Part shown: piece by piece, positions 9,927-63,443 of the stretch | Position numbering within the stretch: the stretch's first letter is position 1 | Layout of the letters: each line of letters starts with the position of its first letter | NCBI GenBank assembly: GCA_963701305.1 | Contig: OY969586.1 | Coordinates: 1,865,509-1,929,508, forward strand | Source: Candidatus Aminicenantes bacterium | GTDB taxonomy: Bacteria > Acidobacteriota > Aminicenantia > Aminicenantales > CAVYOD01 | DNA: 64,000 nt | Direction: 5' to 3' | Notes under the pieces: generated by a model | Databases searched by the model: none | What the model saw: the letters and a program-made list of their open reading frames with translations, nothing else | What the model was told of the DNA's origin: nothing | Made by a program: the position numbers and the translations under genes

Positions 9927-9980
9927 CGGCATGAATATTATATTCATAACCGTCTATCCCGTCTATCTCGCAAAATTGCA

Positions 9981-10020
9981 GTAAGGGTGAGGGGTGAGGC
10001 GTAAGGGGCAAGAGGCAAAG
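9981..10020. repeat. Tandem GTRAGGG heptad array (copy A, one-armed)
   Basis: gtaaggg/tgagggg/tgaggcg/taagggg/caagagg: about 5 tandem 7-nt units in the ftsY/recJ divergent region. A 9-nt direct repeat (cgtctatcc cgtctatct) lies immediately upstream. Confidence 0.7.
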
Positions 10021-18396: not shown

Positions 18397-18400
18397 AAAA

Positions 18401-18440
18401 GTGAGGAGTCGGGGGTGAGGAGTGAGGGGTAAGAAGTCAG
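18401..18440. repeat. Tandem GTGAGGR heptad array (copy B, one-armed)
   Basis: gtgagga/gtcgggg/gtgagga/gtgaggg/gtaagaa/gtcag between the rapZ stop and the EIIA(Man) start. Confidence 0.7.
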
Positions 18441-20966: not shown

Positions 20967-21060
20967 GTGTGAGGTAAGAGGTCAGGAGTAAGGGGCAAAA
21001 ATCAGAAAACCCCTTCCCCCTTACCGTTTACTCCTTACCACTTATAGCTGACTGCTCAGC
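20967..21060. repeat. Heptad-unit inverted-repeat element (copy C)
   Basis: Left arm gtgtgaggtaagaggtcaggagtaagggg. Right arm ccccttcccccttaccgtttactccttaccacttatagctgactgctcagc is its imperfect reverse complement. Lies between convergent ptsI and the cupin gene; likely hairpin-forming. Confidence 0.7.
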
Positions 21061-26695: not shown

Positions 26696-26783
26696 CCGAG
26701 TACGTGAGCGGTGAGCAGTGAGCGGTGAGATGTTCAAATCAAAAAACGGAATGGTTCACTGCTCAGTGATCACATCTCACTGC
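26696..26783. repeat. GTGAGCR heptad inverted-repeat element (copy D)
   Basis: Left arm cgtgagcggtgagcagtgagcggtgagatg. 25-nt spacer. Right arm actgctcagtgatcacatctcactgctcactgg (reverse-complementary). Lies between the helicase stop and the tolQ start on the - strand, so it sits in a transcribed 3'/5' region. Confidence 0.75.
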
Positions 26784-29177
26784 TCACTGGAGGAGGGCTT
26801 TGAGGATTTCCCTGGCGACCTGCTTGGCCTGCTCGCCGCTCTCCTTCGTCGGCCCGACGCAGGAGGGGCATCCTTCCTGGCAGGGGCAGATTTCGATCGT
26901 CTTCAGACAGTGTTCGAGGAGGGCCGTCTCTAGCTCAAAGAGTGAAGGGCTCAACCCGATTCCGCCGGGATAGTTATCGTAGATAAAAATATTGGGCTCA
27001 AAATCGGCGTCGGCGAAGATGGGCTGCTCTTCCTGGCGCAGGATCTTGAGGGGAATGGTCCTGGGAGGAACGGATTCGCCGGTGGAATTGTCTCCGATGG
27101 AGGCTCCGACGTCGTGGAGATCACACATCATGAACAATGGCGAGACGTGATGGAGAAGGTAGGCCAGCCCGAAAAGCCCGTTGATCTTCTGTTCCGAAAG
27201 GAAGGGCAAAACCTGGATGATGGAGGCGGGAATGGTCAGCCAGTAGGCCGTGGTGTGCATCTCATTCTGGGGTAGACTCAGGTCTCCGGCTCCGACGTTT
27301 TCCATGGTTTGGAATTTGATCTTCTTGAAGCCGACCACTTGAGTGGCGACATGGACCTCTCCGTGGGAGACAGTGCAGCCGTCAAGCGCTTTTTTGTTGA
27401 AGACATCGAGGATCTTGATCTTGGTATAGTCGATGGCATCGGTGAAATAGTCAACATCGGTCTTTTTGACATAGGCCTTGCGCTGGTCATACTCGAGCTT
27501 CTCGACGAAGTACTGTTCACCTTCGCAGATGTAAATGGCTTTGGGATGAAGGGTTGTCAGGGCCGAGGAGAAGTCGACCTCGGCGATGGCTTTGGATTTT
27601 TGGGTGGTATCGACGACGACGAAGTTGTCGGAGCTGATGCTGCGCAGACTGACGCCGTCGGCCGGATAGACATCGGACGTCCAGAACCATTTGTCCTGGG
27701 AGTGGTGAACGAGCTTCTCTTCCTCCAAGAATTTCAGAATCTCAGAGGGTTCGCCCTCGCCGAATTTTTCGCCGTCCGTGAAGGGGAGCTCGAACGCGGC
27801 GCACTCGATGTGGCTGATGAGGATGGAGAGGTTGTCGGGGTTGATGAGCGCCCGCTCCGGCGGTTTCGAAAAGAAGTAATCGGGGTGGTTGACGATGAAT
27901 TGATCGAGCGGGGAGCTCGAGGCCACGAGCACGGCCGCGGATATTCCGGTCTTGCGGCCCGCCCGCCCGGCCCGCTGCCAGGTGCTGGCGATCGTTCCGG
28001 GATAGCCGGCCAGCACGGCCACGTCCAGGCTTCCGATGTCGATCCCGAGCTCCAGGGCGTTGGTCGAGACGACTCCGAGGATCTTGCCCTCGCGCAGGCC
28101 CTTCTCGATCTCCCGCCTGGTGAGGGGAAGATAGCCTCCCCTGTAGCCTCTGATCAGTCCCTCGTCCTTGATCGTCTTTTCGATGTCTCCCTTGAGGTAG
28201 GTGAGCAGGACCTCGGTGATCAGCCGGCTCTGGGCGAAGATGATCGTCTGGAGACGATTCTTGAGGAAGATCGAGGCCAGGCGGCGTGATTCATTGACAT
28301 AGGACCGCCGGATCCCCAACGGTTTGTTGACCACGGGCGGCGTATAAAAGATGAAATACTTTTCCCCCCGCGGCGCTCCGTTGTCGTCGACCAAGGCGAC
28401 CGGCCGCTCGATCATTTTTTCGGCCATCTCGACCGGATTGGCGATCGTCGCCGTACAGAGGATGACCTGGGGGTTAGAGCCGTAGAACTGGGCGATCCTC
28501 TTCAGCCGCCGAAGGACGTTGGCCAGATGACTGCCGAAGATCCCTCGGTAATTGTGGAGCTCATCGATAACGATATATCTCAAATTCTCGAAGAGCTTGA
28601 TCCATTTGGTGTGGTGGGGAAGAATGCCCGAGTGGAGCATATCCGGGTTGGTCAGGACGATGTGACCCCTGGCCCGGATGGCCTTGCGCGCATCCTGGGG
28701 TGTGTCTCCGTCATAGGTGAAGATACGGATCTCTTCGGGGAGGAAATGGATGATCTCGTTGAGCTCGGCCTGCTGGTCCTGGGAAAGCGCTTTGGTCGGG
28801 AAAAGATAGAGGGCTCGGGCGGAGGGGTTCTTGAGAATCGTGTCGAGAACGGGAAGGTTGTAACAGAGCGTTTTTCCCGAAGCGGTCGGCGTGACGACAA
28901 CAATGTTCTTCCCCTCTCGAATGGCCTGCCAAGAGGTCAGTTGGTGGGAATAGAGCCGCTCGAAGCCTTTCTGCCTCAGGGCCTCGAGGAGGGCGGGGTG
29001 AACACCGTCCGGGTAATCCTGAAACCGGCCTGCCTGGGCCGGCAGGTGTTTGATCGCCTTGATGGAATCGGACTTGTGGCCGATTTCCCTCAGGATTTCC
29101 AGGGATTTGAGGAGGTTTTCTTCTCTGGGCATGCCCGTCTCTCTAACCTCGGTCCATGCTATCCTATAAAGCGCCAA
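26784..29177 (-). CDS. DEAD/DEAH-box helicase with C-terminal DUF1998 zinc module (YprA/MrfA family)
   Basis: 797 aa. Helicase motifs I (TPTASGKT), II (DELH), VI (QRAGRAGR) and a C-terminal Cys cluster (CPCQEGCPSC). Confidence 0.85.
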   Translation of the reverse strand: MALYRIAWTEVRETGMPREENLLKSLEILREIGHKSDSIKAIKHLPAQAGRFQDYPDGVHPALLEALRQKGFERLYSHQLTSWQAIREGKNIVVVTPTASGKTLCYNLPVLDTILKNPSARALYLFPTKALSQDQQAELNEIIHFLPEEIRIFTYDGDTPQDARKAIRARGHIVLTNPDMLHSGILPHHTKWIKLFENLRYIVIDELHNYRGIFGSHLANVLRRLKRIAQFYGSNPQVILCTATIANPVEMAEKMIERPVALVDDNGAPRGEKYFIFYTPPVVNKPLGIRRSYVNESRRLASIFLKNRLQTIIFAQSRLITEVLLTYLKGDIEKTIKDEGLIRGYRGGYLPLTRREIEKGLREGKILGVVSTNALELGIDIGSLDVAVLAGYPGTIASTWQRAGRAGRKTGISAAVLVASSSPLDQFIVNHPDYFFSKPPERALINPDNLSILISHIECAAFELPFTDGEKFGEGEPSEILKFLEEEKLVHHSQDKWFWTSDVYPADGVSLRSISSDNFVVVDTTQKSKAIAEVDFSSALTTLHPKAIYICEGEQYFVEKLEYDQRKAYVKKTDVDYFTDAIDYTKIKILDVFNKKALDGCTVSHGEVHVATQVVGFKKIKFQTMENVGAGDLSLPQNEMHTTAYWLTIPASIIQVLPFLSEQKINGLFGLAYLLHHVSPLFMMCDLHDVGASIGDNSTGESVPPRTIPLKILRQEEQPIFADADFEPNIFIYDNYPGGIGLSPSLFELETALLEHCLKTIEICPCQEGCPSCVGPTKESGEQAKQVAREILKALLQ

Positions 29178-36350: not shown

Positions 36351-36395
36351 AACCGTCCCCCGTCCTCCGTGCCCCGTCAATCTCACCAAGAAGAC

Positions 36396-36718
36396 GGTGA
36401 GCAGTGAGCTGTGAGCACTGAGCAGCTAAAAAACGATGATCCAGAACAGCTGAACACGCCGTGCATCCTTCCGAAGTAACGTCCGGGCGGGAATTAAAGA
36501 TAGTCAAGAACATAAATCAAGAACCCCGAGATCATACTTGGTGCTCTGTCTGATTCCCTCAAAATAAGAGACGGACGCACATCCAAGCCCAGGTCCGCGC
36601 CCCTGATTGCCGGCTGTGGGAAAAGAGCCGTCGGGAGTGAGTCTTAATCGCGGTGTCAAGCATAAGATAGCCTTTTATGCTTTTCACTGCTCAGTGCTCA
36701 CAGCTCGCCGCTCACTGG
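36396..36718. repeat. MITE-like element bounded by inverted GTGAGCR heptad arms (copy E)
   Basis: Left arm 36396-36426 ggtgagcagtgagctgtgagcactgagcagc. Right arm 36685-36718 cactgctcagtgctcacagctcgccgctcactgg. Reverse complements share a perfect 20-mer gagctgtgagcactgagcag. They enclose 258 bp of non-coding sequence between convergent HD-GYP and ftsK. Confidence 0.75.
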
Positions 36719-39050: not shown

Positions 39051-39074
39051 CGGGGGAGATTATAACATATTTTA

Positions 39075-39298
39075 GTGAGCAGTGAGCAGTGAGCAGTGAG
39101 CACTGAAATAATTAACACATCATCTTTATCGATTATAATGAAGATGCTTTTATTTATAATAGGTTCTTGCCAGTTAAACGGAGCGACGCAGACCAGATAA
39201 ACGTTTGTCCAGTGAGAACTGAGCAATAAAGTACTTCGCTGATTCGGCCTTTACTTGCTTTTTTTGGCTTCTCACTGCTCAGTGCTCACGGCTCACTG
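39075..39298. repeat. MITE-like element with AT-rich core bounded by inverted GTGAGCA heptad arms (copy F)
   Basis: Left arm 39075-39106 (gtgagcagtgagcagtgagcagtgagcactga). Right arm 39270-39298 (tctcactgctcagtgctcacggctcactg). Reverse complements match 19/20. The 163-bp core is about 30% GC in a 58% GC genome. The right arm supplies the last codons (…SEP*) of the upstream GT-C gene. The left arm ends 25 bp before the ftsK start codon. Confidence 0.75.
39112..39139 (+). promoter_or_regulatory. Sigma-70-like promoter motif inside element F core (TTAACA-N16-TATAAT); a second TATAAT at 39155-39160
   Basis: Perfect -10 hexamers in the AT-rich core. A GC hairpin plus T7 run (ggcctttacttgcTTTTTTTgg, 39247-39267) lies about 120 nt downstream on the same strand. 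Orientation and function not established. Confidence 0.3.
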
Positions 39299-59576: not shown

Positions 59577-60230
59577 TCATTCCTTGGCGGCGAAAAAAAG
59601 GACGTGGGGATACCAATAGCCTTTGTCCAAGGAGATTGGTCTAACTCTAAATCCTACTCCCTCGAGCAGCCGGAGATATTCAGCCCTGCTCCGGAAACAA
59701 AATCTGTTCCCGTGCGTGAATCCGATGATCTTGACGGCCATGGTTTCCTGGAAGAGATTCCAGAGATATTTCCAGCGGGGCCGGGTATCCATATCTTTGA
59801 GTAGGAGCACTCCTCCCTTAGTCAAAGCCTGGTAACATTTGCGGAGCATGGCCTCCTGCCGGGAGGAGGGGATGAGATACAGAACATCGATCATGGCGAT
59901 GACGTCGCTCTTCGGATAATCCATATCCGTGATGTTAAAAACCCGGAATTCCAGACCGGGAATGTCTTTATGGACATCGCGGGCGGTCTTGATCTTTTTG
60001 GGGTCCAAGTCAAAGCCGAGAATCTCACGGGCGGGAGATCCCAGTTTGAGCAGGTTCGAAAAAACGCCGTTGCCGCAGCCTAGATCGATGACTTTTCCGG
60101 CAGGAGGAAAATAGGTCTCCATCGCCAGAAACGGGCAAATCTTGAGCTTGATCCGCAAATAGAGTTTTGTGGCCAGGCCACAGTTGTGATAGAGACGGAA
60201 GACTTCTTCTCGATTCAGCATCCGCCTCAC
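59577..60230 (-). CDS. Class I SAM-dependent methyltransferase
   Basis: Motif I VIDLGCGNG, post-I D, about 217 aa. ATGA-coupled to upstream asnB. Confidence 0.75.
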   Translation of the reverse strand: MRRMLNREEVFRLYHNCGLATKLYLRIKLKICPFLAMETYFPPAGKVIDLGCGNGVFSNLLKLGSPAREILGFDLDPKKIKTARDVHKDIPGLEFRVFNITDMDYPKSDVIAMIDVLYLIPSSRQEAMLRKCYQALTKGGVLLLKDMDTRPRWKYLWNLFQETMAVKIIGFTHGNRFCFRSRAEYLRLLEGVGFRVRPISLDKGYWYPHVLFFAAKE

Positions 60231-62137
60231 CTCAGATAGTGATCATACCAGAACTGGAAGATGATGAGCGGCCATAGCAACTGGCGATGATTGTGATTTC
60301 CTTCGAAGTGCTCTTTCATGATCTTCCCAACGTAGGCGGCATTAAAAAAACGGTGCTTTTTCAGGTTCTCAGGGGAGAGGACGGAGGCCACGAAATCCTT
60401 GAGGTCATCCTTGATCCAGACGCCCAGGGGGATGTCGAAACCTATCTTCTTCCTGCGGATGATTTCCCGTGGCAACCGGCGGCTCATTGCTTTCTTGAGG
60501 ATGTATTTGGAGGTCATTCCCTTGAGCTTGAGGGAGCTTGGGATCGTGGCGGCGAACTCGACGAAGGTGTAATCCAGAAAGGGGACGCGGATCTCGAGGG
60601 AATTGGCCATGCTCATCCGGTCCACTTTGACCAGGAGGTCGTCCTGGAGATAGAGCTTGAGGTCCAGGTAGGCCAGCCTGTCCAGGGTTTCGCTGGCTCG
60701 GCAGTTTCGAAGATGGAAGGCCACCGGGGAGTAGGCATCTTGGCCAAGCGCCTCCCTGAACTCCTCGGAGAAGAGGTCCTTTTTGGCGGCGGGAGTGAAA
60801 GCGCCCCACCAAACAAAATTGGCGATCTCGGGCGGGTATTCGACACCGGCGATGAATTTTTTCGCCTTGAACTCGAAGGAGAGCCTCTTCTTAGTGGCCG
60901 GCAGGAGCGAGACCAGGTTCTTGACGATTCCGGTCCTGATCAACCGAGGGACCCTGCGGTAGAGACGGGCCACCTTGTAAGCTTTATAGGTATCGTAGCC
61001 CGCGAAGAGCTCATCGCCGCCGTCCCCGGCCAGGGCCACGGTGACATATCGACGTGCCAGTTTGGAAATGATATAAGTTGGGATGATCGAGGCATCAGCC
61101 AGGGGCTCGTCCACATAGTTCATCAAGAGGGGAACCAGGTCTTTCACCAGGCTCGACTCGACGACGAACTCCCGGTGTTCGGTGCCGAAGCGCTGCGCGA
61201 TCGTCTTGGCGTAATCCAGCTCATCGAAGCTCTTTTCTTTGAAACCGATCGAGAAGGTCTTGATGGGAGACGATGCGCCCTCGCTCATCAACGACGTGAT
61301 CGAACTCGAATCGATCCCGCCGCTCAAGAAAACGCCGAGGGGGACATCACTGATGAGTCTCATCCGCACAGACTCCTTGAGCCGGCGTTCAATCTCCTCC
61401 GCAAATTCTTCTTCGCTCTTCGGGGGAGAAGGCTTGGGCTCAAAGCGAACATCCCAGTAAGGACGCAGAGTGACTCGGCCGTTCTCAAGGACGAGCATTT
61501 CACCTGGCTGGAGTTTCTGAATGCCTCTGAAGATCGTGCGCGGAGCCGGGACATATTCGAAGGTAAAATATTGCGAGAGGGCCTCCAAGTCGATCTCTCT
61601 CGGGCAGTCTGACTGAAGCAGCGACTTAATCTCCGAGGAAAAAAGGAGCTGGCTCTTGTACCTTAGGTAGTGAAGCGGCTTCACGCCCAACCGGTCTCGG
61701 ACAAGGATCAGTTTTTTTTTGGCCTTGTCCCAGAGGGCGATGGCGAACATCCCGTTGAGGTCCTGGACGAACGACTCTCCTTTTTCTTCGTAAAGGTGGA
61801 CGATGACTTCCGTATCGGTTTGCGTCCGGAAGGTGTGGCCCTTGTCCACGAGGCGCTTCTTCAATTCCGGGAAATTGTAGATCTCGCCGTTGTAGATCGT
61901 CCAGATCGATCCGTCCTCGTTGGACAGCGGCTGATGGCCGGTGACCAGGTCGATGATGCTCAGCCTCCTCATCCCCAGGGCGATCCGGTCGTCTCGATAA
62001 TAGCCCTCGTCGTCAGGGCCGCGATGGACCATCGCCCGGCACATCGCCCGGGTCAGGATTTCCGCGTCCGGGCCCAGTTCGCCAAAACCGCAGATTCCGC
62101 AGATGCCACACATCTCAGTTGGGCTCATTGTATCCAT
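60227..62137 (-). CDS. asnB: Asparagine synthetase (glutamine-hydrolysing) family amidotransferase
   Basis: N-terminal Ntn Cys (MCGICGF), SGGIDSS PP-loop. 636 aa. Confidence 0.88.
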   Translation of the reverse strand: MDTMSPTEMCGICGICGFGELGPDAEILTRAMCRAMVHRGPDDEGYYRDDRIALGMRRLSIIDLVTGHQPLSNEDGSIWTIYNGEIYNFPELKKRLVDKGHTFRTQTDTEVIVHLYEEKGESFVQDLNGMFAIALWDKAKKKLILVRDRLGVKPLHYLRYKSQLLFSSEIKSLLQSDCPREIDLEALSQYFTFEYVPAPRTIFRGIQKLQPGEMLVLENGRVTLRPYWDVRFEPKPSPPKSEEEFAEEIERRLKESVRMRLISDVPLGVFLSGGIDSSSITSLMSEGASSPIKTFSIGFKEKSFDELDYAKTIAQRFGTEHREFVVESSLVKDLVPLLMNYVDEPLADASIIPTYIISKLARRYVTVALAGDGGDELFAGYDTYKAYKVARLYRRVPRLIRTGIVKNLVSLLPATKKRLSFEFKAKKFIAGVEYPPEIANFVWWGAFTPAAKKDLFSEEFREALGQDAYSPVAFHLRNCRASETLDRLAYLDLKLYLQDDLLVKVDRMSMANSLEIRVPFLDYTFVEFAATIPSSLKLKGMTSKYILKKAMSRRLPREIIRRKKIGFDIPLGVWIKDDLKDFVASVLSPENLKKHRFFNAAYVGKIMKEHFEGNHNHRQLLWPLIIFQFWYDHYLR

Positions 62138-62213
62138 TTTCGATCAAAAACACTACCTTCGCCTGTCTTATCCCTCTCTTTATCTGATGTAAACGCGATA
62201 AGTAACTTGACAT

Positions 62214-62350
62214 GTTCAAGATTGCGCCCACGGCCACCCTCTGGCCCCCGGACCCCGAGGAACCAGTCCCGTCGGTTCCCCCGTCGGACATGCCGACGGG
62301 CCCCCCTCCGCTACGGGGTCTCAAGGGTGGCCGTGGGCGCAATCTTGAAC
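62214..62350. repeat. 137-bp element with perfect 27-bp terminal inverted repeats and a nested GC hairpin
   Basis: gttcaagattgcgcccacggccaccct (62214-62240) is exactly reverse-complemented at 62324-62350. The 83-bp C-rich spacer contains cccgtcgg-acatg-ccgacggg. Lies in the asnB/ydjC divergent region. Confidence 0.8.
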
Positions 62351-62400
62351 AGAAATGTCGCGTTTGTATTAGTCATCTCGTCATCCCGTCAAGAAAGAGA

Positions 62401-62476
62401 AAGCAGTAAGCTGTAAGCACTGAGCAGTGAAAGCCCAAATCAAATATTTTCTTACCGTTCACTCCTTACCCCTGAC
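62401..62476. repeat. Heptad-unit inverted-repeat element (copy G)
   Basis: aagcagtaagctgtaagcactgagcagtga … ttaccgttcactccttacccctgac. Shares the cttaccgttYactccttacc module with copy C. Confidence 0.7.
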
Positions 62477-62573
62477 TATCTTCTCGACGAGATGGACGTC
62501 TTTTTGTTGTTTTTTAGGTGAAAACTGGCATAAAATAAGCCGGGTTGGAGATAAAAAAAGCCCGAGATTCCGA

Positions 62574-63443
62574 TTGAGATCAGAAAAAAGAATCATCGTC
62601 AACGCTGATGACTTTGGGCTGAGCCGGGGCATCAATGAAGGGATCATCCTGGCCCACAGGAAGGGCATCCTGACGAGCGCCACCCTCATGGCCAACATGC
62701 CGGCTTTCGACCAGGCCGTGGATCTGGCCAGGCAAAATCCCGGGCTGGGAGTGGGGATTCACCTGAACATCCTCAGAGGCGCCCCCGTTTCTTCACCCGG
62801 CCAGGTGACCAGCCTGGTCGATCCGCAAGGCCTATTTTGGGGCCGCGTTTCCATCCTTATCAGGAAATTGATCTCCAGGAGTATCCAAGCCGAGGATGTC
62901 GAGAGGGAATGGCGGGCCCAGCTGGAGAAAATCTTGGCTGCCGGGATCAGGCCGACTCATTTTGACAGCGAGAAACATCTCCACACCTGGCCTCTCCTCT
63001 TCCGCACCGTCCTCAAGCTGGCCAAGGAATATTCAATCCCGCGTGTCAGATTCATCCGGGAATATTGCTGGTCCGGGTCTCCGGCCCAGATACTGAAATC
63101 TCTCGGGATCTCGCTCGCCTGCAGTTTTATGAAGAAGAAAATTGCCCGGAATGGTATAATGAGGCCCGATCATTTCTCGGGAATCTGCCGGAGCGGCGGG
63201 ATGACAGTGCAGCGGTGGGAGAAAATTCTGGCCAATCTTGCTGATGGTACCACCGAGGTCATGGTTCACCCGGGCTTCAAAACGGCGGAACTGGATGCCC
63301 TCCAGGGACTGACCGGCTCCTATTATATTCATAAATTCAGAGAGAAGGAGTTGGAGGCCCTGGTGGATGAAAGGCTGAGATCTCTGGTCCGGGCTTCCGG
63401 GATTCAACTCATTAATTTTAGCGGGCTGGACAAAGATGGCTAA
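62574..63443 (+). CDS. YdjC/ChbG/HpnK-family carbohydrate deacetylase
   Basis: N-terminal IIVNADDFG motif and conserved His/Asp residues. The ORF-track start (GTG at 62427) reads through repeat copy G; a TTG at 62574 is the more plausible start. Start uncertain. Confidence 0.75.
   Translation: MRSEKRIIVNADDFGLSRGINEGIILAHRKGILTSATLMANMPAFDQAVDLARQNPGLGVGIHLNILRGAPVSSPGQVTSLVDPQGLFWGRVSILIRKLISRSIQAEDVEREWRAQLEKILAAGIRPTHFDSEKHLHTWPLLFRTVLKLAKEYSIPRVRFIREYCWSGSPAQILKSLGISLACSFMKKKIARNGIMRPDHFSGICRSGGMTVQRWEKILANLADGTTEVMVHPGFKTAELDALQGLTGSYYIHKFREKELEALVDERLRSLVRASGIQLINFSGLDKDG

Follow-up and report, generated by a model that had tools for sequence, protein, structure and literature searches.

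A dispersed nested-palindrome intergenic repeat of Aminicenantes with a near-invariant core and a variable, paired stem

The element described here lies in the window, the whole 64-kb stretch of DNA analyzed, which the homologues of its AsnB protein place in Aminicenantes (Acidobacteriota). It sits between two divergent genes. On the minus strand is asnB (60227-62113), recognized by its homologues and coding for a glutamine-hydrolysing asparagine synthase of 628 aa. On the plus strand is a ydjC-family gene (62574-63443) with a TTG start and a 289-aa product, a length shared by its relatives, followed by a gene for a GT2 glycosyltransferase. The longest asnB ORF begins at 62137, but translation truly starts at 62113, with the Met of MCGICG, as the length of about 628 aa in all 120 homologues listed indicates; in asparagine synthases, the catalytic Cys must come directly behind the initiator Met. 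Adjoining the element, and outside it, is a hairpin module built of GTRAGCN repeats, a loop, and CTYACNN repeats (62385-62485). The original prediction had set the element apart from this heptad family, and the distinction is borne out by the differing sequences of the heptad hairpins and by the position of the adjoining module.

The most conspicuous part of the element is a perfect inverted repeat, placed both by direct reading of the sequence and by a repeat finder at 62213-62240 and 62324-62351. It had been given as a 27-bp repeat with a spacing of 83 bp; it is exact and real, and its arms are indeed 83 nt apart, but it measures 28 bp, one base more on each side, with 28 nt of perfect complementarity (TGTTCAAGATTGCGCCCACGGCCACCCT). 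The repeat finder further extends the arms imperfectly to 38 nt at 89%. The 27-mer of the arm is confined to these two positions within the 64-kb window (100 shuffles give an expectation of 0), and the repeat is the strongest close-range inverted repeat of the window, with none other comparable. The second stem and the direct repeat that had been noticed inside the C-rich spacer are both present, the former as a nested hairpin, CCCGTCGG-ACATG-CCGACGGG, at 62280-62300, and the latter as two occurrences of CCCGTCGG at 62268-62275 and 62280-62287.

The 28-bp repeat, which had been taken as terminal, is internal to a longer unit that ends 28 nt farther left and 20 nt farther right and measures 187 bp (62185-62371, plus strand). 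Homology to a copy at a second locus (contig L017, 6821-7031) begins and ends exactly at these limits, and the flanks outside are unrelated. The unit consists of outer repeat, spacer, 28-bp stem arm, 83-nt core, 28-bp stem arm, spacer, and outer repeat. The left outer repeat, TGATGTAAACGCGA (62185-62198), pairs with the right one, TCGCGTTTGTATTA (62358-62371), and reads TAATGCAAACGCGA in the relatives L009, L011, L012, and L017. The left spacer, TAAGTAACTTGACA (62199-62212), is unpaired in the window copy because the right side is without 12 nt that are present in the second-locus copy. It is followed by the left arm of the stem (62213-62240), the C-rich conserved core (62241-62323), within which hairpins are predicted at 62259-62279 and 62280-62300, and the right arm (62324-62351). 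The outer repeats are AT-rich (TAATGCAAACG...CGTTTGCATTA in relatives); their terminal match is 11/11 in L017, and over 14 bp they match at 13 positions in L011 and at 11 in the window, counting Watson-Crick pairs alone. In L009, L011, L012, and L017, TA stands at both tips of the unit, whereas the left tip of the window copy reads TG; being palindromic, this TA may be the repeat's own tip. Each unit is thus three-layered, with short AT-rich outer repeats tipped by TA, a long GC-rich stem, and a C-rich core of about 80 nt.

Folded as a single strand, the 201-nt region encompassing the unit has a predicted energy of -115 kcal/mol (z = -11.3), which none of 200 shuffles equals. The predicted fold adds an outer stem, 62184-62200 with 62356-62372, in the same unit as the 28-bp repeat, so that the whole becomes one long rod.

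A near-identical unit was found by looking up the contigs of a translated copy (P0135). In contigs L016, L017, and L018, its neighbors are genes for an OMP beta-barrel protein and a DPP-IV/S9 peptidase, one on either side, and its flanks are unrelated to those of the asnB/ydjC site. These contigs come from the same three metagenomes as the asnB/ydjC-site contigs L009, L011, and L012, and the two loci likely belong to one genome. The second-locus unit is co-directional with both neighboring genes, and its first bases, TAA, are the stop codon of the upstream gene. Since homology between the two loci begins exactly at TAATGCAAACG and ends exactly at CGTTTGCATTA, the unit corresponds to 62185-62371 in window coordinates. 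The second-locus copy has 12 extra nt in its right outer arm; in L017, the extra ATTAGATATTAC pairs with the left spacer, and the full 211-nt unit is predicted to fold into a continuous rod of -128 kcal/mol (z = -12.4). Copies overall are about 190-210 bp long.

Further copies came to light in translated form, when the spurious 65-aa ORF running through the element was used as a query against a protein catalogue. Eight short ORF “proteins” share the translated arms and core, with at least four different N- and C-terminal flanks; the translated copies P0136-P0139 diverge directly past ...GCATTA, matching the right end of the unit. A profile search of 1.84 billion representative proteins recovered 23 clusters that share the translated core. 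Overall, the translated copies lie in at least five different flank contexts, the wider set sharing just the GC-rich core. In distant copies, this core is carried in alternative reading frames (PPPLRG, PLRYGG, and PPSATG); the homology is therefore at the nucleotide level, with indels tolerated. The blocks GARCCAGTCCCGTCGGTTCCCCC and CCGACGGG.CCCC.CTCCGCTACGGGG are found again in these distant translated copies. The unit is hence dispersed, with at least two DNA loci and at least five flank contexts overall. The original prediction had allowed that the sequence might prove single-copy, with covariation inconsistent with a hairpin; it is multi-copy, and, as detailed below, covariation supports the hairpin. 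An assembly artifact was rejected, given that short-read assemblies made independently (JGI; ENA k141 contigs) and another ENA assembly (L009, L016) all contain the element, across several samples and pipelines.

In public catalogues, at least 23 clusters (P0135-P0157) of 45-301-aa “hypothetical proteins” are translations of this repeat, and all those found are in one frame, probably as that frame has the highest third-position GC.

Neither the 64-kb window nor some 190 kb of contigs from relatives contained a second copy, a covariance model (R1) recovered no extra copy in the window and 12 loci, and a terminal 15-18-mer had no further match in the window or loci. The arm 20-mer GTTCAAGATTGCGCCCACGG gave just chance single-arm matches in unrelated contexts (L001-L003) among genome and metagenome contigs; such arm scans are uninformative on family size because the arm is the most variable part of the family. 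In viral contigs, a core 21-mer had no match and a profile-based scan had no confirmed match, and plasmid and phage collections were likewise unmatched. One viral contig (L019, IMGVR_UViG_3300046777_001387) carries at 353-372 the exact core 20-mer CCAGTCCCGTCGGTTCCCCC, within a small hairpin whose 3' arm it forms (GACGGGACTGG...CCAGTCCCGTC); the remainder of the element is absent there and the covariance model is unmatched, and the match may be due to chance or to a shared submotif. In the literature, the core sequence occurs in no paper, and a full-text search returned no paper on Aminicenantes together with inverted repeats.

At the asnB/ydjC site itself, the unit is present in some strains and absent from others, as seen in relatives' contigs gathered through the 90%-identity cluster of AsnB (five members) and the YdjC cluster. 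It is present in four strains (the window, L009, L011, and L012) and absent from L004, L010, L015, L008, and L005. The AsnB proteins of L004 and L010 fall within the window's 90%-identity cluster (P0001, carried by L004, is 95% identical), and in both the heptad module beside the site is rearranged. In more distant relatives, whose AsnB is 72-82% identical, the intergenic region is short and the element absent. L015 keeps solely the right outer repeat, and its 192-bp gap, equivalent to window positions 62168-62359, is bounded by a TGTC microhomology (62164-62167, plus strand; partner 62356-62359), with L015 reading CCTTCGTCTGTC joined to GCGTCTGTATTAGTCATCTCG. Because the right outer repeat is left behind and 17 nt of the left flank are removed, this gap reads as an imprecise deletion rather than an excision. 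A cleanly empty site was found in none of these strains. One JGI sediment metagenome (3300032069; L004, L011, and L017) contains strains with and without the element at this site; L004 and L011 coming from one sample, the polymorphism therefore segregates within one community.

Directly to the right of the unit stands GTCATC (62372-62377, plus strand), whose left counterpart (62179-62184) reads TTTATC in the window, TTCATC in L009, and GTCATC in L011 and L012. This flank is probably no target duplication, since it is part of an array of CGTCNNCT octamers. At the second locus (L016-L018), no flanking repeat of this type was found, and the reading of GTCATC as a 6-bp target duplication was dropped on this ground; neither locus shows an unambiguous target duplication.

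The five distinct DNA copies available from the two loci reveal an unusual pattern of conservation in stem and core. In these copies, 98.6% of the cells of the predicted structure are paired. In the long stem, 6 of the 28 pairs have changed on both sides and are still paired, a level reached in none of 500 shuffles, and the arms are perfectly complementary in both the window and L017. Variable columns amount to 16 of 56 in the arms versus 10 of 131 elsewhere (pairwise Fisher p = 0.002-0.02), so that the arms are about four times more variable than the rest, and the core is near-invariant, with 4 of its 83 columns variable. The drifting long stem is hence held paired by two-sided changes while the core hardly changes. 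The inner helices never vary in the DNA copies and are therefore without covariation support. Among the distant translated copies, the back-translated ORFs of P0144, P0146, P0153, and P0155-P0157 have flanks that are complementary to each other (p <= 0.04 versus shuffles) and unrelated in sequence to those of the window; the long closing stem is therefore conserved, its sequence being free.

The two strands differ in their signal. On the plus strand, which is co-directional with the neighboring genes at both loci, the two main helices contain 24 non-Watson-Crick cells, comprising 19 G·U, no A·C, and 5 other mismatches; six independent transitions are all G·U on this strand (two-sided p about 0.03), although this could reflect mutational asymmetry. 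With the structure mirrored on the minus strand, the paired fraction is only 91.3%. In folding energy, the 139-nt core does better by 2-6 kcal/mol as the minus strand than as the plus strand.

Given its occurrence at several unrelated sites and its absence from some close relatives, we consider the unit a dispersed and probably mobile element rather than a switch for the neighboring sugar genes. We propose, with moderate confidence, that the window copy is one of a previously undescribed family of rod-shaped, nested-palindrome intergenic repeats in Aminicenantes, of the MITE/REPIN kind, in which the folded single strand is under constraint. The unit might spread as non-autonomous mobile DNA moved in trans by an enzyme encoded elsewhere, and the TA tips would suit a TA target of the IS630/Tc1 type. 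Selection may act on the folded plus strand, be it an RNA transcript or a DNA intermediate in single-stranded form. Read-through, which would be necessary at the second locus, where the unit overlaps a stop codon, would yield a very stable RNA rod of at least 28 bp. From what is established of RNase III, a perfect 28-bp RNA duplex would be a substrate, and the RNA of the Correia elements is processed by this enzyme. The rod might likewise be cut by RNase III and could block 3' exonucleases, altering the stability of the neighboring message. The copy between asnB and ydjC would most likely be a tolerated insertion between two divergent promoters and not a dedicated regulator.

A miniature transposable element was among the options of the original prediction. 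The dispersed family, the unrelated flanks, and the presence or absence among strains speak for it, but the 27-bp repeat is not terminal, there is no duplication at its edges, and the pattern of conservation is the reverse of that in classical MITE families, which have conserved terminal repeats and a drifting core. In particular, a conserved core shared by distant members with differing stems looks more like a functional RNA. A MITE whose terminal repeats end at the 28-bp arms was rejected: the ACA/GAA flanks there form no duplication, and the L015 deletion ignores those edges. The unit as now delimited is small and without conserved coding capacity (187 bp for the window copy, 211 bp for that of L017, with non-conserved ORF ends), and it has terminal inverted repeats at its true ends. 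Bacterial MITEs, which are generally below 200 bp and reach up to about 400 bp, are defined so as to include elements with a long RNA stem-loop and TA-flanked elements of the ERIC type (PMC3184786). Like the present unit, the Correia elements of Neisseria (CREE/NEMIS) and the ERIC-type MITEs of Enterobacteria are intergenic units of 100-200 bp with a long hairpin and TA at both tips, which occupy many unrelated sites, vary between strains, and form dsRNA if transcribed (PMC3184786). Neither has sequence similarity to the Aminicenantes element; further, the 26-bp repeat of Correia is terminal and conserved, whereas our element has a variable long repeat in its interior, a terminal repeat of only 11-14 bp, and a core that is the conserved part.

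This reversal raises the possibility, on balance a doubtful one, of a novel family of structured non-coding RNAs, either an RNA gene or a mobile RNA-encoding module, with a functional core and copies arising through duplication or transfer instead of MITE transposition. Under the same doubtful reading, the core of about 80 nt might bind a protein or be catalytic, and the long closing stem would need only to pair. Functional RNAs are classically recognized by a conserved core with a covarying closing stem, and it is suggestive that distant members share the core blocks, yet have complementary stems unrelated to each other. That the wobble pairs all fall on the one strand co-directional with the neighboring genes at both loci is consistent with such an RNA, as are the two mutually exclusive pairings with CCGACGGG that the repeated CCCGTCGG affords. 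Structured RNAs with a long variable closing stem, such as 6S RNA (about 185 nt), resemble the element in rod shape, length, and the combination of a covarying stem with a conserved interior; unlike them, the element is multi-copy, dispensable between strains, found in unrelated contexts, and without an Rfam match. Rfam 15 gave no match for the window at gathering thresholds, the best sub-threshold hit being a long-hairpin microRNA model, MIR1882 (40 bits versus a gathering threshold of 107), which matches equally on both strands and is therefore a generic hairpin. No promoter-like or terminator-like site was found, a consensus scan of 62050-62650 yielding no sigma-70-like site, albeit in a phylum whose promoters are unknown. 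Against an RNA family also stand the dispensability of the unit in strains whose neighboring genes are 95% identical, the invariance of the inner helices, which leaves them without covariation support, and the short inverted-repeat ends, TA tips, and unrelated contexts, which point to insertion. A bolder and rather unlikely form of this idea is a new structured-RNA class that travels as a small mobile module, with a functional C-rich core and a stem of free sequence, in diverse uncultured bacteria beyond the species. Its core blocks, proposed with the same reserve, would be GARCCAGUCCCGUCGGUUCCCCC and CCGACGGG.CCCC.CUCCGCUACGGGG, with two competing CCCGUCGG pairings.

A distinctly less probable alternative is a REPIN-like element whose folded single-stranded DNA is handled by an HUH enzyme (RAYT or the IS200/IS605 type), the hairpin being the recognition structure. 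Equally improbable as part of this alternative is that templated repair inside the hairpin keeps the arms identical as they drift. Copying from arm to arm would explain more easily than second-site mutations how arms that evolve about four times faster stay complementary, and perfectly so in the window and L017; strand-specific tolerance of G·T suits a single-strand intermediate; and the instability typical of palindromes is seen in the L015 deletion, which spans the hairpin between 4-bp repeats. REPINs, which are REP doublets moved by RAYT, are likewise dispersed non-coding hairpins that maintain stem complementarity, possibly through a single-strand intermediate, but their arms are conserved REP sequences of 20-40 nt around a variable loop, the opposite of the Aminicenantes element, in which the arms are the most variable part. 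No RAYT, TnpA, or transposase with matching ends was seen in the window and related contigs, the search for RAYT being non-exhaustive. Moreover, the unit is much longer than REP sequences, is without a conserved GTAG-type head, and has symmetric inverted termini, unlike the ends of IS200/IS605.

The idea that recombination between the 28-bp repeats inverts an 83-bp promoter segment ahead of polysaccharide genes fits the long perfect repeats, their position upstream of glycosyltransferase genes, and the true inversion of the adjacent heptad module between strains; like invertons upstream of polysaccharide loci, the element places inverted repeats before glycosyltransferase genes. It is nevertheless very improbable. 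The site-specific recombinase or invertible site that had been suggested is not supported: relative to the asymmetric outer segments, the core keeps one orientation throughout the seven DNA copies, which come from at least four samples, and the translated ones. Further, recombinase sites are conserved, but these repeats differ from copy to copy; 83 bp is very short for inversion; a second copy lies in an unrelated context; and, unlike in invertons, no inversion was observed and no promoter or recombinase was found.

Hardly credible either is that the element serves the ydjC-GT2 operon as a dedicated 5' leader or riboswitch, or that the 65-aa ORF (62212-62409) is a small protein gene. The element does lie upstream of ydjC in the same direction, and the ORF is open in all copies, with gene callers choosing just this frame. 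However, the ydjC operon is present without the element in L004, L010, L015, and L008, and the cis-regulatory leader proposed earlier is not supported, in view of L004, L010, and L015, which have the operon without the element and a 95% identical AsnB, and of the near-identical copy between the outer-membrane-protein and peptidase genes. As for a protein, the starts, stops, and flanks of the ORF differ between copies, substitutions are overwhelmingly non-synonymous (those in the arms nearly all so), and distant copies are frameshifted with nucleotide blocks retained. That five of the six frames are open follows simply from the high GC content. The five other reading frames, concatenated into one query, returned no matches, and gene calling in L009, L011, and L012 placed no gene over the unit. 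The unit is non-coding.

Three further candidates were dropped. For an integron attC site, the arms GTTCAAG...CTTGAAC are in reverse order relative to RYYYAAC/GTTRRRY and do not fit the consensus, and these bases are not conserved in L009, L011, and L017; for a hammerhead motif, CTGATG is not conserved; and a JUMPstart/ops element was considered and set aside.

For Aminicenantes, a phylum known from metagenomes alone, there are hardly any descriptions of intergenic repeat elements. The family lends itself to use as a marker for variation between strains and for hot spots of rearrangement, and it seeds spurious “hypothetical proteins” of 58-111 aa in public protein catalogues. Its invariant core combined with a fast-changing, always-paired stem is unusual and provides a test case for RNA-level selection versus hairpin-templated DNA repair; if the core is indeed functional, it would constitute a new RNA motif.

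The surroundings of the unit are themselves repetitive. Heptad-repeat hairpins, of the form (GTGAGCA)n, a 30-250-nt spacer, and (TGCTCAC)n, sometimes with (CCGTNCC)n before, constitute an intergenic family in the window (9950-10008, 18400-18440, 21009-21044, 26704-26789, 36353-36717, 39074-39298, and 62372-62475). These hairpins, REP-like or STRR-like, separate genes in convergent, tandem, and divergent arrangement and are unlike the 187-bp element in sequence. The module at the asnB/ydjC site is inverted relative to both genes in L004 and L010 (window 62385-62498 versus L004 6326-6439 and L010 2286-2399), as judged from a 79.5% plus-strand match over 117 nt with both flanks matching on the minus strand, and it keeps the window orientation in L009, L011, L012, and L015. 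The asnB/ydjC intergenic region is a nested quasi-palindrome, with arrays of CGTCNNCT octamers on one side and their complement on the other, and recombination between its arms therefore probably flips the center. In L009 (8611-9481; sample ERZ25039515), ydjC is broken into two fragments (80 and 130 aa), probably through assembly indel errors rather than as a real pseudogene. At 62475-62485, the window is without about 60 bp of a GGGGAACGGGGCACGGTGCACGGGGAACGAGATGGACGAGATGAC array that its relatives L009, L011, and L012 have beside ydjC, another indel in this intergenic hot spot.
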